Source: Chloroflexi bacterium RBG_13_51_36 (GTDB lineage Bacteria > Chloroflexota > Dehalococcoidia > GIF9 > AB-539-J10). From it: 64,000 nucleotides of DNA. Every line of letters begins with the position of its first letter. Position 1 is the first letter of the stretch. The DNA lies in contig MGMS01000054.1 of the NCBI GenBank assembly GCA_001796515.1, forward strand, positions 19,481 through 83,480, given 5' to 3'. Positions 34,552-56,511 of the stretch are shown here, one piece after another. The translations under genes and the position numbers were made by a program. Under the pieces are notes generated by a model, which saw nothing but the letters and a program-made list of their open reading frames with translations, was not told the origin of the DNA and ran no database searches.

Positions 34552-34557
34552 GTTTAT

Positions 34558-37466: not shown

Positions 37467-37480
37467 CACTTTGCCTTATT

Positions 37481-38570: not shown

Positions 38571-38663
38571 TGTGTTTGAGATTCAGTCGCGACTATACAG
38601 AAACTCCACATCGCACGCTCTCATTCGTAATTCGCGGTTTCTGAATTCTCAATACCCCTTTCG

Positions 38664-39191: not shown

Positions 39192-39213
39192 TTTCCCACC
39201 ATTTCCACAAAGT

Positions 39214-39349
39214 GTGGCAATTCCCTTGTCCCCACCAAGATTGGTTCGGCTGGCTTGGCCAGCCTCGCAATGCCAGGCGGGGAGTGCGTGCCAATCCCCT
39301 TGCCCCACGGGGATTGCTCCGTGCCGATAAATCGGGACTGGCAATGACG
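39214..39349. repeat. cluster of family A units between minor pilin and pilC
   Basis: aagattggttcggctggcttggccagcctcgcaatgcca, ggcggggagtgcgtgccaatccc and gggattgctccgtgccgataaatcgggactggcaatgacg. Confidence 0.6.
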
Positions 39350-39409
39350 GGGGATTTTCGTATCACCAATTCTGTAAATCACCATATATGCCCCGCTAAT
39401 AATCCTCAC

Positions 39410-40624: not shown

Positions 40625-40641
40625 GGATGCCCTCCAAACTG

Positions 40642-43011
40642 CTAAGTTACGACATAGGCATTGCGCAGTATTTCAGAAGGAGTGGTAATACCTTCCTTTA
40701 CCTTGCGCATACCATCGTTCCCTATAGATACCATACCTTCTTCAAGTGCCCGAGCTCGGATGGTACTACTGTTGGCTTGATTACAAACTAGCTCTCTTAT
40801 CGAGTCACTCACAGTTAGAATCTCAAAGATTCCCGTACGCCCCAGGTAACCGGTATAGGAGCAGGACTTACAGCCGGTACCATACAGGAACTTGGTTTGC
40901 TTCTCCCCCATTTCCTTTTCATAAGCCATCTGCTCGACCAAGGGGGGCTCAACAAGGCGACCACAATCAGGGCAAATGCGACGCACCATCCGCTGAGCGA
41001 CAACACCAACAACCGCTGAGGCTATCAAGAAGGGCTCTATCTTCAGATCAAGAAGACGGGAGAGTACACCGGCAACCTCATTGGCGTGGATAGAAGACAG
41101 CATCAGGTGCCCGGTTAAGGCTGCCTGGACAGCTATGTGAGCTGTCTCGGAATCGCGTATTTCACCGACCAGTATTACATCAGGGTCAAGACGAAGTATG
41201 GACCTCAAACCACTGGCAAAAGTAATGCCGGCCTGGGAGTTAACCTGAATCTGGCTAATATCCTTGAATCGGTACTCAGCAGGATCTTCAATAGTAATCA
41301 TGTTTCTCCCCTGAGTATCAAGGGAACTAATTGAGGCATACAGGGTAGTAGTCTTGCCAGCTCCGGTAGGGCCGCTGATCAGAAGCATACCATAGGGAAC
41401 CTTGAGCAGACTTTCATACTTTTCCAGGCTATCGGGTAGCATACCAAGCTCTGCTAACCCCAGAGTAGCCAGGGACTTATCCAGAAGCCGCAGGACTGCT
41501 GTTTCACCCCAGACAGTGGGAGCGGTAGCGACTCTGATATCTATCGGTCGCCCTTTAGCCTCGGTAGAGAACTGACCATCCTGAGGGCGAAAATGGTCAG
41601 CGATATTCATTTCAGCGAGAATCTTAATTCGTGAAATGAGCGCCCGGTGTACGGTCAGTGGTAGAGCCATCGTATCTTGAAGGGTGCCATCTATACGATA
41701 GCGTATGCGCAATCTATCTTCTTCTGGCTCAATATGAATGTCAGACGCGCGGGCTTTAACGGCCTCTTCAATTATAAGGTTGAGAGCCTGCACCAGAGGG
41801 GTATCAGTAGCAACTCTAGTGGCAAGCTTCTCATCAGTTGTTTCATCAGGGATGGAGATACGAGAAACCTGCTTTTCAATTTCACCATAGGCTTTATAAT
41901 TGAAGTCAATAGCGTCTCTGACTTCCTGGGCAGTGGCAGCTATAGGCTTAATCCTCATTCGACTCTGGGCGGAAAGAGCCTCCAGAGCAAAGATATCAGT
42001 CGGGTCTGCCATAGCCACTTCCAGTGTCTTACCAGATATAGTCATAGGTATGGCATTGTACTTTCTGGCCATCACCTCGGGAATCAATTGTAGTGCCTCA
42101 GGTTGGGGCATCTGCCTCAACAGCTTGGCCCGAACCTTATCTGTCTTGACCGGCTTCTCTGCTCCTCGAATAGGTAATTCTTCAATCACAGGTTTAGAAC
42201 CTGGTTTCTGGACCAGTTTAAGGACTTTTATCTGCTGGTGCTGGGCAAATTGCCGCGCCTCGGGACTAAGCTCCATCGTCACCATAATGACCTTCTCGTC
42301 AACACCAACTTCGAAGGCCTTGGTATCAAATAGCATCACCTGTTGAAGGCTCACTTCCTTGTCCCCATCGAGGAAATCGATGCCCGCTCTACGCTGAACG
42401 TCACCGATTTCGGCATGAGCCAGAATATCGAAGGTAAATTCAATCCCCGACCGGCCTTTGACTCTGGCCTTCTCCTTTATTCGATAGCCACGGTCGATTA
42501 GCGACCTGACCAGTTCTTCCTTTGTCCCAAACCTGACTGGCTCCTCAGGCTTGGCTGGCCGCGCGGCCTGTGCAGCCACCAGTTCCCCGATTTGTTCTCC
42601 GTCAATAACCTTTATTCTTTGTTTGCGGGCCAGCTGTTTCGCCTCTTGACTGAGATCAGGAATAGCGACAAGAATTCTGTCAAGGATGCCGGAGTCATAC
42701 GCTTTATTGGCAAGGCTGAAAATAGTGCCCACCTCTATCTCACGGTCACCACCACCCCCAATGCCTATGGCAATAGTGTAGCTGGTGAAGCCGTCGTCTC
42801 TTTGGGCCAGCATATCAAAGGTATGCTCGATTCCCGAGTTCCCGAGGCGTTTAGCACCCTCGGTTACGGTATAACCCTGCTGCTCCAGATACTCTATAAT
42901 CTGTGCCCTGATCTTCGAATTAGCCTCCATCTCAGGCGTGCCCTTATACACCTTGTGTGACTCGGGCACAGTGTAATTCGCCAACTGGTTGAAGTCAATA
43001 TTCTTACCCAT
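40642..43011 (-). CDS. pilB: type IV pilus assembly ATPase PilB/GspE with ~265-aa N-terminal extension (two Hjc/Mrr-like modules)
   Basis: 789 aa. The C-terminal part has a T2SSE_N-like domain, Walker A GPTGAGKTTT, and the tetracysteine motif CPDC...CKSC. The N-terminus carries two copies of the module found in the 24516-25877 protein: YLEQQGYTVTEGAKRLGNSGIEHTFDMLAQRDDG... and LIDRGYRIKEKARVKGRSGIEFTFDILAHAE... Confidence 0.9.
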   Translation of the reverse strand: MGKNIDFNQLANYTVPESHKVYKGTPEMEANSKIRAQIIEYLEQQGYTVTEGAKRLGNSGIEHTFDMLAQRDDGFTSYTIAIGIGGGGDREIEVGTIFSLANKAYDSGILDRILVAIPDLSQEAKQLARKQRIKVIDGEQIGELVAAQAARPAKPEEPVRFGTKEELVRSLIDRGYRIKEKARVKGRSGIEFTFDILAHAEIGDVQRRAGIDFLDGDKEVSLQQVMLFDTKAFEVGVDEKVIMVTMELSPEARQFAQHQQIKVLKLVQKPGSKPVIEELPIRGAEKPVKTDKVRAKLLRQMPQPEALQLIPEVMARKYNAIPMTISGKTLEVAMADPTDIFALEALSAQSRMRIKPIAATAQEVRDAIDFNYKAYGEIEKQVSRISIPDETTDEKLATRVATDTPLVQALNLIIEEAVKARASDIHIEPEEDRLRIRYRIDGTLQDTMALPLTVHRALISRIKILAEMNIADHFRPQDGQFSTEAKGRPIDIRVATAPTVWGETAVLRLLDKSLATLGLAELGMLPDSLEKYESLLKVPYGMLLISGPTGAGKTTTLYASISSLDTQGRNMITIEDPAEYRFKDISQIQVNSQAGITFASGLRSILRLDPDVILVGEIRDSETAHIAVQAALTGHLMLSSIHANEVAGVLSRLLDLKIEPFLIASAVVGVVAQRMVRRICPDCGRLVEPPLVEQMAYEKEMGEKQTKFLYGTGCKSCSYTGYLGRTGIFEILTVSDSIRELVCNQANSSTIRARALEEGMVSIGNDGMRKVKEGITTPSEILRNAYVVT

Positions 43012-43315: not shown

Positions 43316-44020
43316 TCAGATCTCGCCAAAATCCTCTAGCGCCCTCCGTGGTTTTACCTCCGGTGAAATCCAGCCGCTGCGCAGGGCAAGGGCAACGGCG
43401 TGGGCCCTGTCATTGGCATTCAGCTTGCGAAGGATGGCGCTGACATGATTCTTAATTGTCTGCTCGCTTATCGTCAAGATACGGGCGATTTCTTTATTCG
43501 AGTTGCCTTCAGCGACGTAGGTTAGAATCTGCGTTTCCCTCTTAGTGAGGGGAGCGGCTACGCCTTCCATAGTCTTGGCAAGACCGCGAAACTGGTTCAA
43601 GACCTGCTTGGCAACCTTAGGCCTGGTCATCAAGCTTTCGTTGATGGGATACTCACCACCGTGGGCTCGCCTTATGGTATTGGCCAGTTCATCGCCGGTG
43701 GCCCTCTTGCTCAAGCAGCCTGCGGCGGCGGTTTTGATGACCTCAAAAAGCTCTTCATCATTGGGGTCAGGGCTCAGCACTATCACTTTGGTATTCGGAT
43801 AGTATTGGGCGATCTTCCTGCTCAGGTCAATCCCGCTAAGGCTGGTCAGGTCAGAGCCCAGCAAAACCACATCAGGGAGATTAGCTTCAATCAGCTCCAG
43901 CGCATTCTGAGCGGGATCGCACTCCAGCACCTCCAAATCCGATTGTTGGGACAACGCCTGGCGCACGCCGGTCCTGAACATTGCCTGCTCATCAATTATC
44001 ATCACTTTTATCTTGTCCAA
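43316..44020 (-). CDS. response regulator, NarL/FixJ (LuxR-type HTH) family
   Basis: Has a REC domain (VMIIDEQ...DVVLLGSDL) and a C-terminal LTKRETQILTYVAEGNSNKEIA HTH. The start is TTG, with AGGAGGTG 5 nt upstream. Confidence 0.9.
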   Translation of the reverse strand: MDKIKVMIIDEQAMFRTGVRQALSQQSDLEVLECDPAQNALELIEANLPDVVLLGSDLTSLSGIDLSRKIAQYYPNTKVIVLSPDPNDEELFEVIKTAAAGCLSKRATGDELANTIRRAHGGEYPINESLMTRPKVAKQVLNQFRGLAKTMEGVAAPLTKRETQILTYVAEGNSNKEIARILTISEQTIKNHVSAILRKLNANDRAHAVALALRSGWISPEVKPRRALEDFGEI

Positions 44021-44227
44021 CAGTCACCTCCTGACGAAGTCTCGCACCCTCAATCCAGATACTTCCCCGTTTCCGAGACCTGGCTCCGTTGATTTATCGT
44101 ATAATGTATTCTCTCTGATGTCAATATTATATCATCTTGCGCTGTCGGGCATCCGGGAGTCTTGACAAGCGTCGATGGGGTAGTATAATAGTAGTAGGCC
44201 GAAAGTACCGGAGAACGGCGTGGAAAA

Positions 44228-44518
44228 ATGAATCGACGAAGGTCTAATATAGAGATAATAGCAGACATGCTCCGGGTGGGAGAGAATGGTGCTGGCAAGA
44301 CGGAGATCATGTACAGCGCCAATATGAGCTACGCTCAGATACAAAAGTACCTTGGCTTCCTTGTGAGCCACGGTTTCATCAACAAAGTGAAGCTGGGAAA
44401 TCCCTCAGTCAGCTATCAGGTAACGGTCAAAGGAGGAGAGCTGCTCAGAAACATAGACAGCATAGTTGAAGTGCTTGAGTTCCGAAACGGCAACGGGCAT
44501 AACGGCAATGGAGCTTGA
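44228..44518 (+). CDS. winged-helix DNA-binding protein (archaeal-type wHTH)
   Basis: 96 aa. RRSNIEIIADMLRV...GKTEIMYSANMSYAQIQKYLGFLVSHGFI follows the wHTH pattern. Confidence 0.55.
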   Translation: MNRRRSNIEIIADMLRVGENGAGKTEIMYSANMSYAQIQKYLGFLVSHGFINKVKLGNPSVSYQVTVKGGELLRNIDSIVEVLEFRNGNGHNGNGA

Positions 44519-44624: not shown

Positions 44625-44951
44625 ATGTCTGAGAAAAGAATGCTAATCGTAGATGCCGAGCTGGTGAAGAGAATAGATGACAACCGTGGTGACTTAGGCC
44701 GGTCTGACTTTATCAACTTTCTCATTGAGAGCGAGTTGAAGGAAAAAGAGACAGGCAAAAAGCAGGGCGGCGTAACCCGAGATGAATTTCACCAGTTTCA
44801 GGAAGGCACGAAAGAGCTATTGCGAAGTTTCCTGGAGTTCTTCATCAGCTACGGGCTGGAGTTGGGTAAGCAGCCTGGCGATAACGAATTCGAGCAATTA
44901 GCTCAGAAACTGCAAGGCCTGGGTAGCTCGGCCAAGGTAAAAAGCTCCTAA
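44625..44951 (+). CDS. ribbon-helix-helix (CopG-like) domain protein
   Basis: The N-terminus RMLIVDAELVKRIDDNRGDLGRSDFINFLIE follows the RHH pattern. An AGGAG SD is present. Confidence 0.5.
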   Translation: MSEKRMLIVDAELVKRIDDNRGDLGRSDFINFLIESELKEKETGKKQGGVTRDEFHQFQEGTKELLRSFLEFFISYGLELGKQPGDNEFEQLAQKLQGLGSSAKVKSS

Positions 44952-45116
44952 CTTCTTCGCATTTTCCCCGCGACTATATCTCCACAGCTTCAAATAGAAC
45001 TATCTTCTAGAAAATAATCTCTTCCCAAGCTATTCCGCTATTGCCATACTGTCGTCAACATAGCTATTCCTTCGTTGTCATGCCGAATGACACGGAGGAA
45101 AGCCGGAGGGACAGTT
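44952..45116 (+). promoter_or_regulatory. conserved leader of GH3 paralog 1 (palindrome TAGAAC-TAT-CTTCTA at 44995-45009; hairpin GTCATGCCGAATGAC at 45077-45091)
   Basis: Roughly nine in ten positions are identical, by eye, to 50278-50443 upstream of paralog 2. A possible TTCAAA-N18-AATAAT promoter has the palindrome in its spacer. Confidence 0.5.
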
Positions 45117-46790
45117 ATGGCAAGACCAGTCGAGTTACTGCGCCAAGGCAGAAAAGAAGAGCTATGGCAGATGTGCTGCGGCTTCATTGACCTCAGCCTG
45201 CAGCAGTTTATGGTTATCCAGAAGAGGCTACTTTTGGAGCAGATTGAGTTATTAAAGAACTGCGAATTAGGCAGGAAGGTAATGCATGGTGCTACGCCCG
45301 AGACAATAGAAGAATTCCGTGAACAAGTGCCATTGACCACCTATGGCGATTATTTACCCGAGCTTGTGGAAAAGAGAGAGGATCTGTTACCAACCAGGGT
45401 CGCCAGATGGGTGCGAACTTCGGGCCACACAGGTGAGTATGACGTTAAGTGGATACCCGCTTCACAGGGATTTCTTGATGAATACGAGAAGATAGCCACA
45501 GGTGTGTTTCTTTTCACTATGTGCGACAGGCGGGGCGATACCTCTAAGGTTAAGGAACATCTTAAGGTGCTATACACCGTCGGCCCTCCCGAATACGGAA
45601 GCGGCCTCGGTGTCCAGTTGACACAGAAAGCGGTTAACTATGATTTACTGCCTTCCAACCGCAACGAGATTACGTCGTTTCGCGAAGTAATACAGGCCGG
45701 GTTCAGGGAGGCTTTGTATCGGGGACTGGATGGATTTGGCGGGTTATCTTCCGTCCTGGTAGCCGTGGGCGAGCAGCTCCAGCAGCAGTCGGGTAAGATA
45801 AAGATTACCTCTTTGTTATCTCACCCCGCTGCTCTGTTCCGTGTAGTAAAGGGATTAACCAGGAGCAAGCTGGCTCATCGCCCTATGCTACCCAAAGACT
45901 TATGGTCTATCAAGTTTATTGGTGGCGGTGGTGCAGATTGCGCTATATTCGGAAAAAGAGTCGAGGAACTATGGGGGCGCCATCCCTTAGAGGCTTATGG
46001 CGGTTCAGAAGGGGGAATGTGCGCTTGTCAAACCTGGGATTACGAGGGCATGACTTTTGTCCCTAGCCTTAATTTCTTTGAGTTCATCCCCGAAAGAGAA
46101 TGGTTCAAGTGGCAACTGGACCATTCTTATCGACCGAAGACTGTTTTACTTGACGAGGTAGAAGCTGGAAAGGTTTACGAGATAGTCATCACCAATTTTC
46201 ATGGTGGTATCATGACCAGATATCGGCCCGGTGACCTGATAAAGATAGGTTCATTGCGAAACGAGAGGCTCAATATCGACATTCCTCAGATGACATTCCA
46301 TAGCCGGGCCGACGACCTGATCGATATCACGGGTTTCGGTCACCTGACCGAAAGGATAATCTGGGAGGCAATTGAGGGCGCGGGTATTCCCTATGCCGAT
46401 TGGACAGCGCGTAAAGAGGCAAAAGATGGCAAACCCATTCTGCATCTCTACCTTGAACTTAAGGACGACTTCATTGCCAGCGAGCAAGCCGTAGCGGCAG
46501 CGATATATGATGCGCTCATAAAACTGGACAGTGTGTATCACTATAACATTTACGATGCTTACGGCGACCCCGAGACCGTGCTCGGTCTAAAACCCGTAGA
46601 AGTCAGCTTCCTTCCCGATGGTACCTTCACCCGTTATATCAACGAACGGCAAGCTGGGGGAGCCGCACTCGGGCACTTGAAGCCACCACACATAAATCCT
46701 TCCGAGAAAGTCCTCTCCCTGCTTGGGGTCCGCAAGGTTGAGGTCGAGGCTGCCGTACCCGTAACGGAAGCCGAACGCACGGCCGCTTGA
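45117..46790 (+). CDS. GH3-family (acyl-acid amido synthetase-like) adenylate-forming enzyme
   Basis: About 557 aa. The length and motifs (..SSG/TSG-type region, GGGAD, YGGSEG, NFFEFIPE) fit bacterial GH3 auxin-responsive-promoter family proteins. GGAGGG lies 6 nt upstream of the ATG at 45117. Confidence 0.7.
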   Translation: MARPVELLRQGRKEELWQMCCGFIDLSLQQFMVIQKRLLLEQIELLKNCELGRKVMHGATPETIEEFREQVPLTTYGDYLPELVEKREDLLPTRVARWVRTSGHTGEYDVKWIPASQGFLDEYEKIATGVFLFTMCDRRGDTSKVKEHLKVLYTVGPPEYGSGLGVQLTQKAVNYDLLPSNRNEITSFREVIQAGFREALYRGLDGFGGLSSVLVAVGEQLQQQSGKIKITSLLSHPAALFRVVKGLTRSKLAHRPMLPKDLWSIKFIGGGGADCAIFGKRVEELWGRHPLEAYGGSEGGMCACQTWDYEGMTFVPSLNFFEFIPEREWFKWQLDHSYRPKTVLLDEVEAGKVYEIVITNFHGGIMTRYRPGDLIKIGSLRNERLNIDIPQMTFHSRADDLIDITGFGHLTERIIWEAIEGAGIPYADWTARKEAKDGKPILHLYLELKDDFIASEQAVAAAIYDALIKLDSVYHYNIYDAYGDPETVLGLKPVEVSFLPDGTFTRYINERQAGGAALGHLKPPHINPSEKVLSLLGVRKVEVEAAVPVTEAERTAA

Positions 46791-46990
46791 GGACAGCGGC
46801 GCTATTCTGGAAGTAACTGGCCTGTTGCCGAGGCCAAGTTTCTGATGGCGCCCTTCTAATTGTCAGTTTGAGGCCTTCATATATATTGCCGATTCCGCAG
46901 GTCACAAAGGCAAACCTCAAGGCTCGTTGAGCGTCAAAGACTCGTAGGCGGAGTACATCTGGTACTTCTGGAGGATTACCTTAGTCCTTC

Positions 46991-47019
46991 TTGACAGCTT
47001 CACGAATTGCATCAATAAT
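46991..47019 (+). promoter_or_regulatory. putative promoter TTGACA-N17-AATAAT
   Basis: Conserved in sequence and spacing with 52323-52351. The ATG at 47046 lies 26 nt downstream. Confidence 0.45.
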
Positions 47020-47045
47020 AGGTTTGTGCTGCAAAAGGTGATGCG

Positions 47046-50000
47046 ATGAATACCCATGCTTTGATTCCCTTAGTCGCCACCGTGGCCTATGTCCCGTTAT
47101 TGGCTATCGTCCTCATAAGCCGCCCATGGCAACCACAACAAAGGCTCTTCTTCCTTTTCCTGGTTCCTGCCATGCTTTGGAGTGCCACGGACATATTCTT
47201 CCGCAGCAGCATCTTTAACGACGAACAGCAGAAGCTCCTTCTGGTCAAGATGGTCCTTTTTTGCGCTGTCTGGATGATCGTTCAATATCGTTATTTCATG
47301 CAGTCTTTCTACAAATCAGATGTGGCCAAGAAACCTTTTGCTTACATTATCCTGGCAGTCTTCACTGGGCTATTAGTAGCGCCGAACCTTGTCCCGTATG
47401 GTCAACCTGGCATTGAGCATGGTATTGCCTTTGCCAGGCTCAACGGGGATATTATCAACATGCATGTTAATTATGGTCCGTTCGTATATACAATTGCTGC
47501 TGTGTTTCTTGCCATCACCGCCAGGGATATGTACGGACTCATACGCAAGCTCAAGGTTCCTGAAAACGTTGAGCAGCGCAACCAGATTATCTATCTGTTC
47601 ATAGGCCTCGCCTGTTTGGCTATTTTCGGCATTGTCACTTTCCGGTTCTCCGCAGAAGGAATCCCTGTTGGCCATATTGGCAATTTTCTGAATGCCTGTA
47701 TCTTGACCTATGCTGTCGTAACCCACCGTTTGCTGGATGTCAGGGTTGTAGCGCGCCGGGCCATTATGTACATAGTTCTTTATGGCGGCAGTCTGGGCAT
47801 ACTATTGGTAGTTGCCTGGCTCATTTCTTATTTCAGCTCTAGTCATGTAGTTGAATTCGAGACCATAGCGTTATTCATCGGACTGGGATTCTCCGCCGTC
47901 CTCTTTCTTGTACACAGGATGCGAGATTTCTGGCAAAGGAAGGTGGAAGAGGCTTTTATCGGAGAGAGATATCATTATCGCACTCTGCTATCCAAATTCA
48001 TTACCACGATACAAAATGTTTCTAGCATGAAGCAGTTTGGTGACGGTTTTGTGTCGCTGGTTTCCCAGTCTATTGGCTGTCACAGAGCTTGTCTGCTTTT
48101 GCCCGAAGCCCAGGAGGAAGGGTTCAACACTCGATTCGTTTACCCTCCTGCAAAAGACAATCCCATGAGTGAATTGAAACTAAGATCGGATAATCCCATC
48201 GTGACGTGGCTGAAGAAAAACAGAATCTTGCTGCACGAGAGAAATCTCTCAATCTTTCCTGAATTCAAATCCATTTGGCAAAAAGAGATAGAGGCAATCC
48301 GACTAGCTGGAATAGAGGCATTTGTTCCCCTAGTAAACGTGGAGGAGTTGGTAGGTATTCTGGTAGTAGGCGAAAAATGGGACGGAACGTCCTATACGGT
48401 TGAGGACTTTCACCTACTGAATGAGATCGGTGCCCAGGTGGCAGCGAGCATGGAAAAGGAATACTCCCATGAACAGTTGAAGGAACAAGAGGCGGAAATG
48501 AATCTGGTTAACCGTCTAACCACAATCATAACATCCAGCATGAGCATTAACCTGATATTTGAAGCCTTCGTCGAGGAACTGAAGCAAGTGGTGGATATTG
48601 ATTGGGCAACAATTGCCATGGTTGACGGTGATGAAGTGTATTTTCTAGCCCTAACCGGTACAGTGGAGTCCGCTTGGCAACTGGAAGAAAGGATACCGCT
48701 CAAAGGAACAGCTACAGAGTCGGCGTGTCGCGAGAGGCGGGCAGTATACGAACCTGATTTGAGACGGCACCACAGGTTTTCAACCTGGCAGAATTACCTG
48801 AAGCAAGGAGTTTCTTCAGTTGTTTACCTGCCATTAAGCGTCGCTGACCGTACTATTGGCACCTTGGTTCTGGCCAGCCACAAACATAATGCTTACGACC
48901 GCAGCCAAATAAGACTTCTGGAGAAAGTGGCTTTGCAGATCGCTGCGCCAATTGAGAATGCTCAACTTTATGCCCGGGCGGAACAGAAGTCTCGCATTGA
49001 TGAGCTTACCGGGTTATTCAACCGACGTTATTTTGAAGAGCGACTCAAGGAGGAAATTGCCCGGCACTCTCGTTATGGTAATGCATTCTCCGTGTTCATG
49101 CTTGACCTGGATAACTTCAAGACCTATAACGACGTATACGGACATCCTGCCGGCGATAGTCTATTGAGCCAGATGGGCAGCATGGTTAAGTGTTCTATCA
49201 GGGATGCTGACCAGGCATTTCGATATGGTGGCGATGAGTTTGTAGTCATTTTACCTCAGACACCTAGGGACGATGCTTACGTCGTAGCTGACCGGGTTAG
49301 AGAGCAGATTGCCGGAGAAATGGAGCAAAGGTCGATCACCGTGACCTGCAGCATCGGTTTAGCTAGCTATCCTGTTGATGGAGTAATAGCCGAGGAGCTT
49401 GTGATTGCAGCTGATACTGCTCTTTATTATGCTAAGTGGACTGGAGGTAATCGAATCTACTTCTCGTCCAAGGCTATCTCTGAGTCGCCCGATAATGGAA
49501 AGAGTTCTGGCAGGCGTGATGGCTTGAGTGCTGTCTATGCCTTAGTCTCAGTAGTGGAGTCTAGAGACCCATATGTCTACGGTCACTCCAGGAAAGTAAA
49601 CGCTTATGCTGTGGCTTTGACGGAAGCACTTGGACTGCCGCCTGATGAGGTATCTAGCGTGAGTACTGCTGCTTTGCTTCACGACATTGGTAAAATTGGC
49701 ATTCCCGATGAAGTTCTTAACAAGAAAGAGCAGCTTAGTAGAGAGAATTGGGAAGCGATCAAAGCTCATCCTCGTTTGGGGAAGAACATTGTCTCCAGTA
49801 TACCCCAGCTTGTTCACTGCGCAGATAGTATTCTATACCACCATGAAAGATGGGATGGCAGTGGCTATCCTGCAGGGCTGAAAGGCGAAGAGATTCCCAT
49901 AGGAGCTCGCGTCATCGCTATAGCTGATAGCTTTGAGGCTATGACTTCTGCCCGTCCTTACCGTCCCCCACTATCCCGCGAAGAGGCATTAGAAGAGCTC

Positions 50001-50111
50001 AGACAGGGCGCCGGGGGTCAGTTTGACCCTAAGCTGGTGGAGGTCTTCATAGGCGTTATTGCGGCTGGACTTCCCGGTAAGGTAAACATGAATCAAGACG
50101 TACTCATCTAG
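47046..50111 (+). CDS. membrane sensor 7TM - GAF - GGDEF - HD-GYP (bifunctional c-di-GMP enzyme)
   Basis: 1021 aa. The N-terminal ~290 aa carry about 7 TM helices. The central part is GAF-like. The GGDEF domain has RYGGDEF and an RxxD I-site (RDAD) 5 residues upstream. The HD-GYP domain has LLHDIGK and HHERWDGSGYP. Confidence 0.9.
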   Translation: MNTHALIPLVATVAYVPLLAIVLISRPWQPQQRLFFLFLVPAMLWSATDIFFRSSIFNDEQQKLLLVKMVLFCAVWMIVQYRYFMQSFYKSDVAKKPFAYIILAVFTGLLVAPNLVPYGQPGIEHGIAFARLNGDIINMHVNYGPFVYTIAAVFLAITARDMYGLIRKLKVPENVEQRNQIIYLFIGLACLAIFGIVTFRFSAEGIPVGHIGNFLNACILTYAVVTHRLLDVRVVARRAIMYIVLYGGSLGILLVVAWLISYFSSSHVVEFETIALFIGLGFSAVLFLVHRMRDFWQRKVEEAFIGERYHYRTLLSKFITTIQNVSSMKQFGDGFVSLVSQSIGCHRACLLLPEAQEEGFNTRFVYPPAKDNPMSELKLRSDNPIVTWLKKNRILLHERNLSIFPEFKSIWQKEIEAIRLAGIEAFVPLVNVEELVGILVVGEKWDGTSYTVEDFHLLNEIGAQVAASMEKEYSHEQLKEQEAEMNLVNRLTTIITSSMSINLIFEAFVEELKQVVDIDWATIAMVDGDEVYFLALTGTVESAWQLEERIPLKGTATESACRERRAVYEPDLRRHHRFSTWQNYLKQGVSSVVYLPLSVADRTIGTLVLASHKHNAYDRSQIRLLEKVALQIAAPIENAQLYARAEQKSRIDELTGLFNRRYFEERLKEEIARHSRYGNAFSVFMLDLDNFKTYNDVYGHPAGDSLLSQMGSMVKCSIRDADQAFRYGGDEFVVILPQTPRDDAYVVADRVREQIAGEMEQRSITVTCSIGLASYPVDGVIAEELVIAADTALYYAKWTGGNRIYFSSKAISESPDNGKSSGRRDGLSAVYALVSVVESRDPYVYGHSRKVNAYAVALTEALGLPPDEVSSVSTAALLHDIGKIGIPDEVLNKKEQLSRENWEAIKAHPRLGKNIVSSIPQLVHCADSILYHHERWDGSGYPAGLKGEEIPIGARVIAIADSFEAMTSARPYRPPLSREEALEELRQGAGGQFDPKLVEVFIGVIAAGLPGKVNMNQDVLI

Positions 50112-50236
50112 TGAACAGATGCGACCCCACTAACTGCAGTCTACATACCTAAATCCATATTAGCTGGTAATAACCGAAGGGGATGCTCAACAACAGGTTT
50201 TGTGTCACTATTTCGTCACGTCACCATAGGTGTCTA

Positions 50237-50277
50237 TGCAGGGTCTGGGCGGTTCCGCCGAAGTAAGAAGCTCTTAA
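50237..50277 (+). pseudogene. remnant of the 3' end of the RHH-like gene (marks the duplication boundary)
   Basis: tgcagggtctgggcggttccgccgaagtaagaagctcttaa aligns with 44911-44951, tgcaaggcctgggtagctcggccaaggtaaaaagctcctaa. No similarity is detectable further upstream. Confidence 0.6.
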
Positions 50278-50443
50278 CTTCCTCGCATTTTCCCCTGCGA
50301 CTTCATCCCCACAGCTTCGAATAGAACTATGTTCTAGAAAATAATCTCTTCCCAAACTACTCCGCTATTGCCATACTGTCATTAACATGGCTATTTCTTC
50401 CTTGTCATGCCGAATGACACCGAGGAAAGCCGGAAGGACAGTT
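50278..50443 (+). promoter_or_regulatory. conserved leader of GH3 paralog 2 (perfect palindrome TAGAAC-TAT-GTTCTA at 50322-50336; hairpin at 50404-50418)
   Basis: See 44952-45116. Confidence 0.5.
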
Positions 50444-52108
50444 ATGACAAGGCCAATTGAATTACTACGTCAGAGCAGAAAAGAAGAGCTATGGCAAATG
50501 TGCTGCGGCTTTCTTAACCTCAGTCTGGAGCAGTTCATGACTATCCAGAACAGATTGCTTCTGGAGCAGATTGAGCTGCTGAAGAACAGTGAGCTAGGCA
50601 GGAGGCTGATGCATGGTGTCATGCCTGAGACGGTGGAAGAATTCCGACAACAGGTGCCATTAACCACCTACACCGATTACCTGCCTGAGCTTGTACAGAA
50701 GAACGAAGACGTATTGCCGGCAAAGCCTACAATGTGGGTGCATACCGTAGGCAGGATTGGTGAATATAACTTCAAATGGGTCCCCTTGCCGGAGAGGTTT
50801 TTATGTGAGTTCGAGCGGGTGGCTGGCGGTATCGGGCTCCTGGCTTCCTGCAACTCTCAAGGCGATTTTCTCATGAAAGAACATCTGAAAACACTGGCTA
50901 CTATGGCGTCCCGAGATTATGGGTCGGGCATCGTGGCATATCTCATGCAACAGGCACTTGGCTTTGACCTCCTGCCCTGCGACATGGCAGAAATGACATT
51001 TCAAGAGAGGGTAGAAGCCGGTTTTGCAGAAGCCTTATCCCGGGGACTTGATGCTTTTGGCGGTTTGCCGTCTATCTTAGCCTATGTCGGGGAGATGTTT
51101 AGGCAAGGAGCAATACGTGTAGACACGCGTTTTCTGCTATCTCATCCGAGGGCATTTGCCTGTTTCCTCAAAGGATTGATCAAAAGCAAACTGGCGCGTC
51201 GTTCCCTATTGCCCAAGGATTTGTGGTCCGCTAAGGTGGTCGTCGGAGGAGGCGCCGATAGTGCCGTCTTCCGGGAAAAGGTGGAGGAACTGTGGGGAAG
51301 GAAGCCTCTGGAGATATACGGTGCCACCGAGGGCGGAGTCTATGCGACCCAGACCTGGGACCGTGAAGGGATGACCTTTATTCCCAACCTCAACTTCTTC
51401 GAATTCATCCCTGAAAGAGAGTGGTTCAAATGGCAATTGGACCATTCCTACCGGCCCAAAACTATCCTGCTGGACGAAGTGAAGGCCGGTGAGAAATACG
51501 AGATAGTTCTCACCAATTTCCACGGTGGTATTATGACGAGATACCGGATTGGTGACGTAATAGAGATAACCTCGCTGCGAAATGAGAAGCTCAACATCGA
51601 CATTCCCCAGATGGTATTCCATAGCCGTGCCGATGATCTCATTGATATTGCTGGTCTTGGCCGGCTGACGGAGAAAGTAATCGGCGAGGCGGTTGAAAAC
51701 ACGGGCATTCCCTATGTGGATTGGGTGGCTCGCAAAGAAATAGTTGGCAGTAAGCCTGTATTGCACCTCTATCCTGAACTTGAAGCTGGCTATATTGCCA
51801 GTGAAGAAAGCTTGGCGACAGCTATACGGGAACAATTCAAGAAGCTAGACAGGAAGTATCGGAGCAATTTCTATCGGCTTATTGGTGACATGGAGACTGT
51901 GCTTGATTTAACGCCAGTACAAGTCACCTTGCTTCCTAGAGGTGCCTTTTCCAGTTATGTCGCCCGACGGCAGTCTGAGGGAGCTAGTCTGGAAAGCTTA
52001 AGACTGCCGCATGTTAATCCTTCCGAGGATGTGCTCTCTTTGCTAATGACTCCCAGGGTTGAGGTGGAGGCCGTGCCGGCGACCGAAGCCGAACGTGCGG
52101 CTGCGTGA
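50444..52108 (+). CDS. GH3-family adenylate-forming enzyme, paralog 2
   Basis: Collinear with 45117-46790. The N-terminal ~90 aa and the central NFFEFIPEREWFKWQLDHSYRPKT block are near-identical, and other parts diverge. Confidence 0.7.
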   Translation: MTRPIELLRQSRKEELWQMCCGFLNLSLEQFMTIQNRLLLEQIELLKNSELGRRLMHGVMPETVEEFRQQVPLTTYTDYLPELVQKNEDVLPAKPTMWVHTVGRIGEYNFKWVPLPERFLCEFERVAGGIGLLASCNSQGDFLMKEHLKTLATMASRDYGSGIVAYLMQQALGFDLLPCDMAEMTFQERVEAGFAEALSRGLDAFGGLPSILAYVGEMFRQGAIRVDTRFLLSHPRAFACFLKGLIKSKLARRSLLPKDLWSAKVVVGGGADSAVFREKVEELWGRKPLEIYGATEGGVYATQTWDREGMTFIPNLNFFEFIPEREWFKWQLDHSYRPKTILLDEVKAGEKYEIVLTNFHGGIMTRYRIGDVIEITSLRNEKLNIDIPQMVFHSRADDLIDIAGLGRLTEKVIGEAVENTGIPYVDWVARKEIVGSKPVLHLYPELEAGYIASEESLATAIREQFKKLDRKYRSNFYRLIGDMETVLDLTPVQVTLLPRGAFSSYVARRQSEGASLESLRLPHVNPSEDVLSLLMTPRVEVEAVPATEAERAAA

Positions 52109-52159
52109 TGGCGGCAGCATGGTTTGGAGAAAACCAGGATGCGGTGCAAAGACACTGAA

Positions 52160-52186
52160 GGGCGAGGTCAAACCTCGCCCTTTCGC
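52160..52186 (+). terminator. rho-independent terminator after GH3 paralog 2
   Basis: An 8-bp stem GGGCGAGG/CCTCGCCC with loop TCAAA is followed by tttcgctt. Confidence 0.55.
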
Positions 52187-52322
52187 TTATCACTCTAAGC
52201 CTTTCGTAGATCCTCCTCCAAGCAGCTCAGAATGCGAAGAGTGAGGCTTTAAGGTTGCTATATGTGAGAGAGGGAGCTATGACCAAAATACTTGGTACCT
52301 TCTAGCGATTACCTTAGTTATC

Positions 52323-52351
52323 TTGACAGTTTTCGAATTTCCGTGAATAAT
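52323..52351 (+). promoter_or_regulatory. putative promoter TTGACA-N17-AATAAT
   Basis: Matches 46991-47019, but here the ATG is about 220 nt downstream. Confidence 0.45.
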
Positions 52352-52412
52352 AACTTCCTATTAGAATGAATCGCAAAAGTGGCTACACACCAATCAGGCG
52401 ACTTGGCCTCTG

Positions 52413-52500
52413 CTATGATTGTGAAGCTGGTGAAACAGCCAAGGCAATCCTGTGATGGGGCACAAAGTCGCCACGCGCCTTTCAGATGCCTGCAATGACG
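52413..52500. repeat. family A-like pair inside the extended leader of DGC paralog 2
   Basis: atgattgtgaagctggtgaaacagccaaggcaatcc ... ggggcacaaagtcgccacgcgcctttcagatgcctgcaatgacg. This is absent from the equivalent position of paralog 1. Confidence 0.5.
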
Positions 52501-52572
52501 TCAAAGAAGAGCTCAAAATGAGACGCGAGGCTGTGTTAGAATTGACGTGTTTGACTATATGATGGTGATGTC

Positions 52573-55500
52573 ATGGGTAACGAGATTCTGATTCCGTTGA
52601 TCGCGACGATTGTTTATGTCCCTTTATTTGTCATTGTGCTATCTAACCGACCATGGCAACAGAGGCATAAGCTATTCCTCTTGTTCCTGATCCCTGCCGT
52701 ACTCTGGAGTCTCACCACGTTCCTCAGTATGAGGAGCCCGGCAGGGTCATTGACAACCAACAAGTTGCTCGATGTCAGAATCGTACTTTGTATCGCCATC
52801 TTGATGCTAGTCCAATTCCATTACCTCGTACGTTCGTTTTATCAGTCTGAACGCACCAGGATACCGTTGGCCTATGTTTTCCCAATAGCTACCATTGCGC
52901 TGGCAGCATCGGGCCAAATCCCAGAGGCCGTTGATCCTGTTGTAGTCTATGGTCCGTGGATTACTGCTATCGGTTTGCTTTTTCTTTCCACAGTGGGCAT
53001 CAGAGATGTATATTCTTTGATACAGAAGTACCGGCTCTCGCCAAACCCAGCGGAGCGCAATCAAATTGTCTATTTACTTGTTGCCATCGCCATCCTGACA
53101 GTGTCCTTTTTTGGCGCTGTTGGTCCCCGTGGAGGCGAATTCCCTGTAAGCCATATTGGCAATCTGATCATTGCCTGTATCTTGACCTACGCTGTGGTGA
53201 CCCATCGACTGGTGGATATCAATGTTGTATTTCGCCAGGCTCTTATATACGCGGTCCTCTACGGAGGCGGTATTGGCATCGTCCTCGCACTTGTTTGGGT
53301 TGCTTTGCACCGCGGCGGCGATACAAGTGAATTTGCAGCTCTAGCCGCGATTACCGGTCTGGGAATGCCGGCTATTCTGTTTCTTGTTCACAAGGTGCAC
53401 GACCTTTGGCAAAGGAAGGTAGAGGATGCTTTCATGGGGGCAAAATCCTTCTACCGCAGGCAATTGTCTCAGTTCACCACCGGGATACACAATGTTCCTA
53501 CCCTGGAGGAGTTGGGCAACGGATTCATATCACTGCTTGCTCAGTCCCTTGACTGCCGGAGGGCCTGTCTGCTTCTGCCCCAGGCCACGGAAGGAGGTTT
53601 TAGCGCCCAGTTTATCTACCCTCCTGTAGAAGACAACCCTATGGGGGAGTTGAAGTTAATGAGAGATAGCCCTATTGTGACGTGGCTTGAGCGCAAAAGC
53701 ACCATATTGCCGGAGAGGAGTCTCCATATCCTTCCTGAATTCCAGTCTATATGGGAAGAGGAGAGGGAGGAAATCCAACTGGCGGGAGTGAAAATGTTCG
53801 TTCCCTTGATGAACAGAGGGAAGACTGTGGCCATTGTAGCAATAAGTGAGAGGCGGGACGGTAGGCTTTACTCCGTTGAGGATATCGACTTATTGGAATC
53901 CATTACCGCTCAGGTGGCAGCGAGCATGGAAAAGGAGTATTCTCGTGAGCGTTTGAAGGAACAAGACCAGGAAACAACCTTACTTAACCGTTTGACCTCA
54001 ATTATAACCTCCAGCGTGAGTATCCAAATGATATTTGAAGGTTTCGCCCAGGAATTAAAGAAAGTGGCGGATATTGATTGGGCAACAATTGCTTTACTTG
54101 ATGGAGAGGACCTTCTCTTTATGGTCCTATCCAGCACAATAGGGTCTGCCTGGCAGCCGGGTGAAAGGATACCACTCGAAGGGACGGCTACGGAGATAGT
54201 ATGCCGGGAAAAGAAAAGCTTGTATGAACCTGATTTGAAACGACATCAGAGGTTCTCGACTGCGGAGACTCACCTGCAGCAGGGGATTCGTTCTGTTGTT
54301 CATCTACCATTGAGTGTTACAGACCGTACTATCGGCAGTCTGATTCTGGCCAGTCGCGAACCCAACGTTTACAACCGCAGGCAAATAAAGCTTCTGGAAA
54401 AGGTGGCTTTGCAGATCGCTGCGCCGATCGAGAATGCCCAACTTTATGCCCGGTTGGAACAGAAGTCTCGTATTGATGAGCTCACCGGCCTATTTAATCG
54501 ACGTTATTTTGAAGAGCAACTCAAAGAAGAGCTTGCCCGCCATTCTCGTTATGGTGACGTGTTCTCTATATTCATGATTGACCTGGATAACTTCAAGGCC
54601 TATAACGACGTATATGGGCATCCCGCCGGGGACATCCTGCTGGGCCATATAGGGAGAATCATCAAAGGCTCCGTCAGAAATGTTGACCGCGCTTTTCGCT
54701 ACGGCGGAGACGAATTCGTCGTCATTCTGCCCCAGACAGCCAGGGACGCTGCTTATGTCGTGGCTGAGCGAGTTCTAAGGCAGATTGCAGAGGAGATGGA
54801 GAAGAGGGCAATTGCGGTGACCAGCAGCATTGGTTTGGCCAGCTATCCCGCAGATGGAATGCTGTCCGGTGAACTTGTTGACATGGCTGATACCGCCCTT
54901 TATCACGCTAAACGGACAGGAGGTAATCGAATCTTCCTTTCCTCCAAGATTCTGCCTAAACTGCCAGATGCCGGGGGAATTCCCGGGATTGGTACCAGAC
55001 CCAACAGTTTGAGCGAGGTGTATGACATAGCCTCGGCAGTGGAGGCCAAAGATCCCTATACTTATGGCCATTCTAAGAAAGTTAACATTTATGCCGTGGC
55101 TCTGGCGGAAAAGATCGGACTATCGCCTGATGAGGTGTCTGTGTTGAGCGCGGCTGCTTTGCTTCACGACATTGGCAAGGTCGGCGTACCCGACAGAGTG
55201 CTTAACAAAAAGGGGAAGCTTACCAAGGAAGATTGGGAAGCGATCAAAGCTCATCCAAAGTTGGGGGCAAATATCATCGGTAACATACCCAGGCTAGCCG
55301 CTGCGGTAAATAGTATTCTATATCACCATGAGAGGTGGGATGGTACGGGCTATCCTGAAGGACTGAAAAAGGAAGAGATTCCCCTGGAAGCTCGCATCCT
55401 CGCCCTGGTTGATAGCTTCGAGGCTATGACTTCCGCCCGTCCTTACCGTCCTGCCCTGTCTCTTGAGGAGGTAATAACGGAACTCAGGCAGGGTGCCGGG

Positions 55501-55611
55501 CTTCAGTTTGATCCTAAGCTGGTTGAGGTCTTCATCGGCATTGTCGAGGCCGGACTTCCTGAGAAGATCAAGATAGGGCGAGATGCATCCGGTGGGCGAA
55601 CGGGTCGGTAG
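52573..55611 (+). CDS. membrane sensor 7TM - GAF - GGDEF - HD-GYP, paralog 2
   Basis: 1012 aa, collinear with 47046-50111. It has RYGGDEF with an RNVD I-site, LLHDIGK and HHERWDGTGYP. Confidence 0.9.
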   Translation: MGNEILIPLIATIVYVPLFVIVLSNRPWQQRHKLFLLFLIPAVLWSLTTFLSMRSPAGSLTTNKLLDVRIVLCIAILMLVQFHYLVRSFYQSERTRIPLAYVFPIATIALAASGQIPEAVDPVVVYGPWITAIGLLFLSTVGIRDVYSLIQKYRLSPNPAERNQIVYLLVAIAILTVSFFGAVGPRGGEFPVSHIGNLIIACILTYAVVTHRLVDINVVFRQALIYAVLYGGGIGIVLALVWVALHRGGDTSEFAALAAITGLGMPAILFLVHKVHDLWQRKVEDAFMGAKSFYRRQLSQFTTGIHNVPTLEELGNGFISLLAQSLDCRRACLLLPQATEGGFSAQFIYPPVEDNPMGELKLMRDSPIVTWLERKSTILPERSLHILPEFQSIWEEEREEIQLAGVKMFVPLMNRGKTVAIVAISERRDGRLYSVEDIDLLESITAQVAASMEKEYSRERLKEQDQETTLLNRLTSIITSSVSIQMIFEGFAQELKKVADIDWATIALLDGEDLLFMVLSSTIGSAWQPGERIPLEGTATEIVCREKKSLYEPDLKRHQRFSTAETHLQQGIRSVVHLPLSVTDRTIGSLILASREPNVYNRRQIKLLEKVALQIAAPIENAQLYARLEQKSRIDELTGLFNRRYFEEQLKEELARHSRYGDVFSIFMIDLDNFKAYNDVYGHPAGDILLGHIGRIIKGSVRNVDRAFRYGGDEFVVILPQTARDAAYVVAERVLRQIAEEMEKRAIAVTSSIGLASYPADGMLSGELVDMADTALYHAKRTGGNRIFLSSKILPKLPDAGGIPGIGTRPNSLSEVYDIASAVEAKDPYTYGHSKKVNIYAVALAEKIGLSPDEVSVLSAAALLHDIGKVGVPDRVLNKKGKLTKEDWEAIKAHPKLGANIIGNIPRLAAAVNSILYHHERWDGTGYPEGLKKEEIPLEARILALVDSFEAMTSARPYRPALSLEEVITELRQGAGLQFDPKLVEVFIGIVEAGLPEKIKIGRDASGGRTGR

Positions 55612-55791: not shown

Positions 55792-56511
55792 ATGCCATTT
55801 TGGGAAATATATTCGTATTTCTACAGTCTGTCCTTAAGAACCTCGTTCCCTTACCGGCACCTTCTGGAAGACCTGAGTAATACATTGAAGGCCAAAGAAA
55901 GGGAAGATATTTTAGATGCCGGCTGTGGGCCAGGACTGGCAATAGAAAGAATCGTTGAAGAAAATGAAGGAAAGGGAATAAGCATCACGGGGCTTGACTT
56001 TAGTGAGAGGATGATAAGACAGGCTCACAACAGATGCAGAAATTTCGCTAATGTGACGCTTCAAGTTGCCGACTTGAACAAAAGCCTGCAGTTTCCCGAA
56101 AGTTTCTTTCATAAAGTGATTTGCTGTAATACGCTTTATGCCCTTGAGGATCCTCATAGAGTCATTTCTGAATTTCATCGAGTCTTGAAGCAGGGTGGTG
56201 CGGTGATAATTGCCAATCCAAAACCAAACGCCGGAGAAAAGGCACTCATAAGAGAACACATAGTGGCGCTTGGCAGACTCACTCCCGTTTACAGGAGAAT
56301 CCACCATATTCTTGTGTCTGTTCTGCTTCTTCCCGTGAATCTGGTTGCTGTCACGATAAATAGGGTCATTGTTGAGAAGGGGAGAAGGGGAGAATATCAC
56401 TTCTTGGCCAAGGAGGACCTGCAGCGACTTTTCCAAGAGGTCGGCTTCAGGAATATCGATATAGGTTCCTGCTACGCTGATCAAGATTGGTTAGTGAGAG
56501 CTGAAAAATAG
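55792..56511 (+). CDS. class I SAM-dependent methyltransferase
   Basis: Has motif I ILDAGCGPG and an acidic post-I residue. 239 aa. Confidence 0.75.
   Translation: MPFWEIYSYFYSLSLRTSFPYRHLLEDLSNTLKAKEREDILDAGCGPGLAIERIVEENEGKGISITGLDFSERMIRQAHNRCRNFANVTLQVADLNKSLQFPESFFHKVICCNTLYALEDPHRVISEFHRVLKQGGAVIIANPKPNAGEKALIREHIVALGRLTPVYRRIHHILVSVLLLPVNLVAVTINRVIVEKGRRGEYHFLAKEDLQRLFQEVGFRNIDIGSCYADQDWLVRAEK

Follow-up and report, generated by a model that had tools for sequence, protein, structure and literature searches.

The window analysed here is a stretch of 64,000 nucleotides (nt) from Chloroflexi bacterium RBG_13_51_36, a member of the Dehalococcoidia (contig MGMS01000054.1, positions 19,481 to 83,480). 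It holds two collinear units, at 44911-50111 and 50237-55611, each composed of a leader, a gene of the GH3 family, a promoter and a long gene whose product combines a seven-transmembrane (7TM) region with GAF, GGDEF and HD-GYP domains. Dehalococcoidia are abundant, mostly uncultured bacteria of the subsurface and of sediments, and their regulatory biology is largely unknown. Comparison with related loci, which are indicated by L-numbers and come from Dehalococcoidia/Chloroflexota metagenome-assembled genomes, places both units in a clade-wide module of GH3 and 7TM-GAF sensor genes. The module is undescribed, its components being members of known families; no published description of the GH3-sensor pairing was found in the literature.

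Tandem collinear units of about 5.3 kb had been described in the initial annotation of this DNA, and the direct repeats, the Pfam domains and full-length protein alignments all bear this out. In the direct-repeat analysis, 44911-44969 pairs with 50237-50295 at 81% and 44962-45261 with 50289-50588 at 85%, and several repeat blocks of 72-81% identity join the 3' halves of the long genes, which encode the GGDEF and HD-GYP domains. The likeness stops just past the stop codons of these long genes, as the annotation had also stated. Aligned from end to end, the two GH3 proteins (GH3_1 and GH3_2) are 64% identical and the two sensors (DGC_1 and DGC_2) 59%. These identities are distributed in the mosaic fashion originally claimed, with conserved GH3 N-termini and GGDEF/HD-GYP halves and less conserved middle GH3 and sensor parts: the GH3 proteins share 79% over aa 1-90, 49% over 91-270, 78% over 271-420 and 57% over 421-557, and the sensors 47% in the 7TM region, 56% in GAF-A, 66% in GAF-B, 75% in GGDEF and 65% in HD-GYP. 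Unit 2 opens with a 41-nt remnant (50237..50277, forward strand) of the 3' end of orf108, the small gene preceding unit 1, as recognised earlier from its match to 44911-44951; it still translates into an orf108-like tail, GLGGSAEVRSS and a stop, against the GLGSSAKVKSS and stop that close orf108 itself.

The GH3 coding sequences most likely begin at the ATG codons at 45117 and 50444, and not at the upstream TTG/ATG of the mechanically called open reading frames (ORFs), in agreement with database gene calls of 557 aa. GH3_1 (45117..46790, forward strand) would thus have 557 amino acids and GH3_2 (50444..52108, forward strand) 554. Both lie above the 23.6-bit Pfam cut-off for the GH3 N and M domains (39.9/49.5 bits for GH3_1, 27.8/59.0 bits for GH3_2) and just under it for the C domain (21.2 and 19.6 bits). 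A sequence search of the PDB matched plant GH3 enzymes only, with E values down to 1e-9. When an AlphaFold2 (AF2) model of GH3_1 was submitted to Foldseek, plant GH3.5, GH3.6, GH3.15 and GH3.12 came out best (E ~1e-14 to 1e-13, TM 0.4-0.5), with PaaK-type ligases ranking after them, in keeping with the two-domain GH3/ANL fold. The family assignment made initially therefore holds, Pfam and Foldseek placing the proteins in GH3 and in no other adenylating family.

To our knowledge, OlsH (2025) is the only bacterial GH3 to have been characterised, bacterial GH3s being otherwise widespread but almost unstudied. OlsH makes N-acyl-ornithine from fatty acids, so that the earlier statement that bacterial homologs are essentially uncharacterised no longer applies; its motif 1 is T114-S115-G-T-T-Q-G-A-T-K, and S115A is inactive (PMC12493201). 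Membership of the window proteins in the OlsH family (NCBIfam NF052613) is ruled out by scores of 26.3 and 22.8 bits against a cut-off of 620, and no alpha/beta-hydrolase gene (OlsI-type O-acyltransferase) is present among the annotated neighbours of the window locus. The nucleotide-binding motifs were located with the patterns (S/T)SG(T/S)(T/S)xGxxK for motif 1, Y-x-x-S/T-E for motif 2 and Y-R-x-G-D for motif 3. GH3_1, a predicted acyl-acid amido synthetase, has TSGHTGEYDVK at aa 101, one residue longer than the pattern, YGGSEGG at aa 294 and RYRPGD at aa 368, and the Lys of its HLKPPH (aa 520) aligns with that of plant QYKxPR. GH3_2 is a paralog with a degenerate P-loop: its motif 1 reads TVGRIGEYNFK (aa 101), with Val in place of the Ser that is essential in OlsH, and its SLRLPH (aa 518) has Arg at the position of the catalytic Lys. 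Its motifs 2 and 3, YGATEGG and RYRIGD, are intact.

The two sensors, DGC_1 (47046..50111, forward strand, 1021 aa) and DGC_2 (52573..55611, forward strand, 1012 aa), are multi-pass membrane proteins with the same Pfam composition -- HisKA_7TM, two GAF domains, GGDEF and HD_5 -- and hydropathy places at least seven membrane spans within the first ~290 residues. GGDEF is matched with E ~1e-44, the active-site and I-site sequence being RDADQAFRYGGDEF in DGC_1 and RNVDRAFRYGGDEF in DGC_2; RYGGDEF and the RxxD I-site (RDAD and RNVD, respectively) are intact in both. HD_5 is matched with E=1e-45 and 2e-41, HDIGK is intact, and HHERWDGSGYP or HHERWDGTGYP is present, so that the motifs first reported for both membrane proteins are confirmed. 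Carrying domains for both synthesis and breakdown of cyclic di-GMP (c-di-GMP), the sensors are predicted to be bifunctional. A sensor gene of the type of DGC_2 in L054 (10035-13052) has a stop or frameshift in its GGDEF/HD-GYP half and is either a pseudogene or the product of an assembly error.

Across 78 loci surveyed by tblastn, the conserved order is a LuxR-type regulator on the opposite strand, a winged-helix regulator (wHTH), orf108, one to three GH3 genes and the 7TM-GAF sensor, followed sometimes by a methyltransferase and then by a second methyltransferase (on the opposite strand) and Elp3. The locus formed by wHTH, orf108, a putative operator, GH3 and sensor is conserved in about 100 loci. 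In 79 of the 80 non-redundant loci with enough sequence the sensor lies downstream of GH3, down to ~48% GH3 identity, and the neighbourhood of GH3 and GGDEF genes seen in the window is thus kept in related genomes. The architectures include GH3-sensor (56 loci), GH3-GH3-sensor (13 loci), GH3-sensor-sensor (6 loci), (GH3-sensor)x2 (3 loci plus the window) and GH3x3-sensor (1 locus), and orf108 has been duplicated along with GH3 in L007, L008, L012, L023, L032 and L065; these varied copy numbers and co-duplications mark the locus as a site of recurrent duplication with boundaries that differ between lineages. Taken alone, the tandem duplication is ordinary. A profile-based search for the locus beyond the clade returned only Dehalococcoidia/Chloroflexota, the patterns being clade-specific. 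Two of the proteins, P0109 (a GH3) and P0245 (a sensor fragment), are labelled 'Candidatus Hermodarchaeia archaeon' in NCBI; since they are 73% and 53% identical to Dehalococcoidia proteins, the label is probably a binning error. The flank module found in most loci is represented in the window by an Elp3 homolog at 57278-58690 (radical SAM + GNAT, TIGR01211, 573 bits) and a divergent methyltransferase at 56593-57243.

The leader of unit 1 contains an operator/promoter core at 44994..45028 (forward strand; ATAGAACTATCTTCTAGAAAATAATCTCTTCCCAA), in which the palindrome TTCTAGAA, two TAGAAC repeats and a -35-like TTCCCA (45022-45027) can be distinguished, followed by an extended -10 at 45042-45050 (forward strand; TGCCATACT). 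The corresponding core of unit 2 lies at 50321..50355 (forward strand) and its extended -10 at 50369-50377. Directly 5' of the GH3_1 ribosome-binding site is a 6-bp hairpin (45076..45092, forward strand; TGTCAT-GCCGA-ATGACA), with its equivalent at 50403-50419; it shows some compensatory or G-U changes in RNAalifold and resembles the termini of dispersed palindromic repeats similar to miniature inverted-repeat transposable elements (MITEs). Even at 50-60% GH3 identity the 35-nt core is almost invariant across loci, ATAGAACTATCTTCTAGAAcATAATC(A/T)CTTCCCAA, and is followed by a spacer of 17-18 nt, variable in sequence and kept in length, and then by TG(T/C)CATA(G/C)T. This layout is that of a promoter/operator, in which either the operator would lie inside TTCAAA-N18-AATAAT or it would be centred near -52 of TTCCCA-N17-TGnCATAGT. 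A riboswitch or structured leader was rejected because the box-spacer-box layout fits a promoter/operator and no Rfam match was found at E<=5; RNAalifold gave just the invariant palindrome and the one 6-bp hairpin. The exact 19-mer TAGAACTATCTTCTAGAAC from the core occurs 101 times in a 596-Gb species-level genome set, where ~4 occurrences would be expected by chance, and a GH3 gene follows at 85 of the 93 sites with room. Among the exceptions within the clade, the 19-mer stands ahead of an HTH_17 gene and a beta-ketoacyl synthase (KAS) gene in L181, and in L163 ahead of a gene for a 192-aa PEMT/ICMT-like membrane methyltransferase that is itself followed by GH3.

A second promoter, TTGACA-N17-AATAAT, is found ahead of each sensor gene, at 46991..47019 for DGC_1, where the spacer is conserved and a TAGTCC box lies upstream, and at 52323..52351 for DGC_2, where it is followed by a 221-nt leader with MITE-like palindromic inserts (both on the forward strand). 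This element, too, had been picked out initially, and 34 of 51 related loci retain it. The conservation extends beyond the hexamers (46975-47019 and 52307-52351 in the window; TAGTCCnnC TTGACAGcTTCCAAATTTATGTCAATAAT), which suggests a further regulator site. Only 8-11 nt separate the -10 from the sensor start codon in many loci, where the mRNA may therefore be leaderless. The long 5' untranslated region (UTR) of DGC genes of the unit 2 type was considered as a regulatory RNA and discarded, being mostly accounted for by inserted MITE-like repeats. Repeats of this kind, resembling MITEs or repetitive extragenic palindromes (REPs) (GTCATTGCGAG...; GTCATTCTGAG...CTCAGAATGAC), have 17 matches in the window against 4 expected; they cluster at 26200-29800, filling the ORF-poor stretch at 25.9-29.9 kb, and relatives have them as insertions in the 5' UTRs of both GH3 and sensor genes.

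Upstream of unit 1, a LuxR/NarL-type response regulator (43316..44020, reverse strand; REC + GerE by Pfam) is transcribed divergently from the module and keeps this position in many loci; it is 31% identical to the one that follows the histidine-kinase sensor of L141, discussed below. The wHTH gene (44228..44518, forward strand) encodes a 96-aa HTH_45/Sso10a-like protein (Pfam E=8e-22; NCBIfam Sso10a_fam), is always 5' of orf108 in the surveyed loci and is 77% identical in L141. A pattern scan places a promoter for wHTH and orf108 at 44162..44189 (forward strand; TTGACA-16-TATAAT, 12/12 to a sigma-70-like consensus). The product of orf108 (44625..44951, forward strand), for which 63 orthologs were aligned, belongs to a family of 1172 unannotated proteins. 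It is small and conserved, with an N-terminus resembling ribbon-helix-helix (RHH) proteins and a helical C-terminal half, and is a candidate operator-binding or ligand-responsive regulator; hhalign to an approximate NikR N-terminus sequence gave the right register at a probability of 6%.

A search with residues 1-480 of DGC_1 found the same input region, 30-31% identical over its full length, fused to HisKA_3-HATPase. Loci with this kinase output are L067, L141 and L143. The contigs of L141 and L143 carry a wHTH, an orf108 homolog (66-70% identical), the operator (differing at 2 of its 35 nt) and a GH3 whose P-loop is canonical. The kinase-type sensor comes after these and is itself followed by two response regulators, the first of them of the REC-GerE type; in L143, a UbiE-like methyltransferase, 28% identical to the one at 55792..56511 of the window, lies between GH3 and the sensor. 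The order in L067 is GH3-GH3-[7TM-GAF-HisKA_3-HATPase]-REC. Altogether the sensor outputs counted were 69 GGDEF-HD-GYP, the 3 kinase loci, 15 cut by contig ends and 1 exception (L140). Since the same input stands beside GH3 with a kinase output, GH3 appears to be tied to the sensor input and not to the c-di-GMP enzymes as such, and this output swap is the strongest evidence for that putative tie. Of the functional coupling proposed by the initial annotation between GH3 and a c-di-GMP sensor, the conserved pairing is upheld, but not a c-di-GMP-specific partner.

Further genes accompany GH3 in some cassettes. In the deep-branching L066, L074, L068 and L110 a KAS gene lies inside the cassette, between GH3 and sensor in L066 (7401-12494) and L074 (3649-7178); a B12-binding radical SAM enzyme is encoded in the L066 cassette as well, and in L066, L068, L074 and L064 GH3 has a PEMT/ICMT-like membrane methyltransferase as its neighbour. 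L163 and L181 likewise belong to the deep-branching versions, and in L181 KAS stands directly behind the operator. A fatty-acyl-like carboxylate is suggested as the substrate by these neighbours and by the precedent of OlsH. The class I SAM-dependent methyltransferase that follows unit 2 in the window (55792..56511, forward strand; Pfam) is an accessory gene after cassettes of the unit 2 type in some relatives, with counterparts in L036, L046, L049, L053, L054 and L057.

The synonymous divergence (dS) between the units is saturated nearly everywhere in sliding windows, from ~0.7 to uncomputable, and the ratio of nonsynonymous to synonymous divergence (dN/dS) is 0.04-0.43 in sliding windows and 0.06-0.34 by region. 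The highest dN values are those of the 7TM region and of GH3 residues 91-270 and 421-557. At the scale of regions dN/dS does not exceed 0.35, with no sign of positive selection on either the sensor or the GH3 pocket, and the coding mosaic is on these rates a matter of differential purifying selection. Neighbour-joining trees place GH3_1 and GH3_2 in different clades, both of which include orthologs from other genomes -- type 1 with L001, L004, L005, L006 and L076, type 2 with L036, L053, L054, L033, L046 and others -- and the sensor tree splits alike. The two-unit layout recurs in L001, L004 and L005, and genomes with a single cassette hold either type 1 or type 2. With dS saturated, separate orthologs for the two units and single-unit genomes of either type, the duplication is old: the units are ancient paralogs and not a fresh duplication. 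In the tree of the flanking gene Elp3, type-1-only genomes are nested among type-2-only genomes, which indicates differential loss or cassette exchange.

The regulatory region has a different history. The 165-nt leaders are ~92% identical between the units although neighbouring codons have dS >1.4, and remnant and leader together are 80-92% identical. Leaders within the genome (50237-50443 against 44911-45116) are more alike than either is to its orthologs, and the same is true, in an independent lineage, of L005 (1325-1405 against 6605-6685); this parallel suggests concerted evolution of the regulatory region. Of the orf108 remnant, L001, L004 and L005 retain no more than the final 13-20 nt in recognisable form. 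The saturated dS rules out that the coding regions were recently duplicated or converted, any conversion or constraint being limited to the non-coding leader and the orf108 remnant. The remnant was initially taken to pin the duplication boundary inside orf108; the remnant itself stands, but given the leader and remnant likeness, the saturated synonymous sites and the L005 parallel, the boundary may reflect constraint or a conversion tract of later date instead of the original breakpoint.

The type-2 clade differs in its motifs. TSG is present in motif 1 of all non-type-2 relatives, whereas among type-2 proteins the Ser/Thr is gone in 30 of 32, where motif 1 reads T-(V/I/E/P/M)-(G/A)-(R/K)-(I/A/P)-(G/S); the basal pair L029/L030 retains TSG. 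The C-terminal Lys position is occupied by K, R, N or E in type 2 and is invariant in the other 62 proteins. Since dN/dS between GH3_2 and its L036 ortholog stays at 0.05-0.14, type-2 GH3s are still functional proteins, in which the adenylation chemistry has probably been altered or lost. The sensor and the middle of GH3 are under weaker constraint, in line with the initial annotation; the change of ligand specificity after duplication that it had suggested may, for type 2, amount to a loss or change of adenylation.

A mechanism that we consider plausible, though somewhat short of probable, is that an operator-controlled GH3 determines how much of a lipid-like carboxylate or its amide is present, that the adjacent 7TM-GAF sensor reads this amount, and that the output is c-di-GMP or a phosphorelay. 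In an ATP-dependent reaction, GH3 would join a lipid-like carboxylic acid and an amine, and would in this way make, or remove, the small molecule sensed by the adjoining 7TM/GAF region; the sensor would convert the reading into a c-di-GMP level or, in the kinase variants, into phosphorylation. The wHTH protein, the orf108 product or both would bind the palindromic operator (TAGAAC-N-TTCTAGAAC) and so control the expression of GH3, probably as a form of feedback. The two cassettes of the window would then be separately promoted channels, with diverged enzyme pockets and sensors and a shared, homogenised operator, and type-2 GH3 may bind its ligand rather than convert it, or may use altered chemistry.

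Several points weigh against this mechanism. Most close relatives carry type-2 GH3 only, with its degenerate motifs, which is awkward for an enzyme that makes the ligand, and accessory genes of the lipid type are confined to a minority of deep-branching loci. The mirror-tree correlation of GH3 with the sensor is r=0.55, falling to a partial 0.25 when Elp3 is controlled for; strict co-evolution is thus not indicated, and the claim made here is limited to congruence of the type-1/type-2 split at the level of the cassette. GH3 and sensor each have a conserved promoter of their own, so that they need not be co-transcribed. The AF2 model of GH3_1 is of modest confidence (pLDDT 61.6, pTM 0.52). The RHH identity of orf108 is not confirmed by profiles, with no Pfam match at E<=10 and no PDB profile match; its AF2 model, at a low-confidence pLDDT of 50, leaves the strand region unstructured and shows helices behind it at 11-23 and 26-43. 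The proposed substrate, product and sensor ligand are, moreover, all inferred.

One alternative is that GH3 is a membrane amino-lipid synthase similar to OlsH and acting in envelope remodelling, its product being structural and the sensor merely co-regulated with it or responding to the state of the envelope. OlsH is itself a precedent; KAS, the B12-radical SAM enzyme and the PEMT/ICMT-like methyltransferase of some loci would suit such a pathway, and the sensor is embedded in the membrane. We nevertheless think it rather unlikely, in view of a score of 26 bits against the 620 required by the OlsH model and of a window locus with no OlsI-type partner. Tight operator control, dedicated regulators and repeated diversification of paralogs are, besides, more typical of signalling than of bulk lipid synthesis, and type-2 proteins with degenerate motifs have been retained as the sole copy in many genomes.

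A second alternative is that GH3, at least of type 2, is a non-catalytic ligand-binding or adaptor subunit in contact with the sensor or with orf108/wHTH, an external carboxylate being what is sensed. Loss of the P-loop Ser/Thr and variation of the Lys are confined to the type-2 clade and go together with a dN/dS of 0.05-0.14, and many genomes have type 2 alone beside the sensor. Motifs 2 and 3 are kept, however, and phosphate could still be bound by the Arg that lies within the altered P-loop. The motifs are canonical in type 1, in clade C and in every deep-branching member, so that the ancestral role was enzymatic. We give this alternative a low probability also. That the adjacency reflects shared regulation or history only, with GH3 and sensor serving unrelated processes and tandem copies that are neutral at a duplication-prone locus, would accord with the separate promoters, the modest mirror-tree signal and a locus rich in duplications and MITE-like repeats, but is very improbable given that the pairing in 79 of 80 loci, down to ~48% GH3 identity, persists through the output-domain swap and several independent rearrangements, that both paralog pairs are under purifying selection and that the operator is almost exclusive to GH3.

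The preferred mechanism, in which GH3 governs the ligand of its neighbouring sensor, has parallels in known systems. Plant GH3 enzymes (JAR1/GH3.11, which makes jasmonoyl-isoleucine, and the auxin-conjugating GH3s) are of the same family, GH3_1 has the same three nucleotide-binding motifs, and the proposed logic is alike, a GH3 setting the level of the receptor-perceived form of a small carboxylate. Identity to the plant enzymes is ~16-19%, however, the plant receptor is an F-box co-receptor whereas the candidate receptor here is a bacterial 7TM-GAF membrane protein encoded next door, and the class of paralogs with degenerate motifs is a feature of the bacterial module. In the DSF/Rpf (diffusible signal factor) system of xanthomonads (RpfF/RpfB-RpfC-RpfG), a fatty-acid-derived signal and an adenylate-forming enzyme are combined with a membrane sensor and an HD-GYP phosphodiesterase as end output. 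The likeness, which includes the combination of kinase and c-di-GMP outputs, is one of analogy and not of membership: the window module is without an RpfF-type crotonase, its adenylating enzyme is GH3 instead of FadD-type, and its sensor is fused directly to GGDEF and HD-GYP, or to a kinase in some loci. PrsK-type 7TM-GAF kinases (PEP-CTERM/XrtA, TIGR02916) match the DGC_1 input over residues 11-495 (E=3e-13), in addition to HisKA_7TM, but the score is 49 against an equivalog cut-off of 300, the output is GGDEF and HD-GYP, and the module is without PEP-CTERM/exosortase context. The planctomycete lyso-ornithine lipid synthetase OlsH, also a bacterial GH3, carries out ATP-dependent N-acylation of an amino acid with fatty acids, and GH3_1 likewise has the TSG of its motif 1 (T-S-G-T-T...K, with an essential Ser); OlsH belongs to a lipid operon, whereas the window GH3s sit in a regulator/sensor module lacking an OlsI partner (PMC12493201).

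A clade of bacterial GH3s thereby gains a defined genomic partner, a 7TM-GAF sensor with swappable output, along with dedicated regulators and a near-invariant operator, which turns the role of bacterial GH3s into a testable problem of ligand, enzyme and receptor and gives an entry point to c-di-GMP signalling in Dehalococcoidia. The type-2 clade, for its part, offers a natural example of a GH3 drifting from the canonical catalytic motifs under continued selection. In a bolder form, which we regard as unlikely to be right in full, the GH3 and 7TM-GAF pair would be a hitherto unrecognised signal-synthase/receptor system of Dehalococcoidia and the bacterial equivalent of hormone conjugation by plant GH3s, with a lipid-like N-acyl amide or a related conjugate carrying the signal within or between cells, the cassettes (type 1, type 2 and clade C) as distinct channels, type-2 GH3s as non-catalytic receptors or adaptors, and an output into surface behaviour such as that of type IV pili.

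Upstream of the module, and divergent from it, the window includes a complete type IV pilus operon at 29910..43011 (reverse strand; Pfam), with PilB (40642-43011), PilC (39410-40624), two pilins, PilM/N, an Ig-domain protein and PilT (29910-30977). On contig JAUWYE010000002.1, which also has the L037 GH3 locus, a second full copy of the operator and promoter (L157, site at 2687-2705) precedes a pilT ortholog (2918-3985) whose product is 88% identical to the PilT of the window; the upstream region of the window pilT is without the operator. The putative link of the pilus to the module rests on synteny in a subgroup and on this single case. PilB was considered as a c-di-GMP receptor on account of a Pfam MshEN match and set aside: the match covers residues 298-371 only (the generic T2SSE N-domain), and the published binding motif, RLGxx(L/V/I)(L/V/I)xxG(L/V/I)(L/V/I)xxxx(L/V/I)xxxLxxQ, is absent from its 789 aa. 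The N-terminus of PilB contains two domains resembling Mrr_cat/inactive restriction endonucleases, and a protein encoded at 24516-25877 (forward strand) combines TackOD1 with an Mrr_cat-like part; no literature on this shared module was found, and it may be a regulatory domain.

Elsewhere in the window there is a second tandem duplication, of ~1.05 kb, within 26495-28148 (26700-26999 against 27753-28052, 82%), each copy containing a small pilin-like gene (26709-27095 and 27672-28148) whose product has a methylation motif at its N-terminus. Five tRNA genes, for Trp, Leu-GAG, Gly-GCC, Cys and Leu-TAA, are found at 22467-23051.

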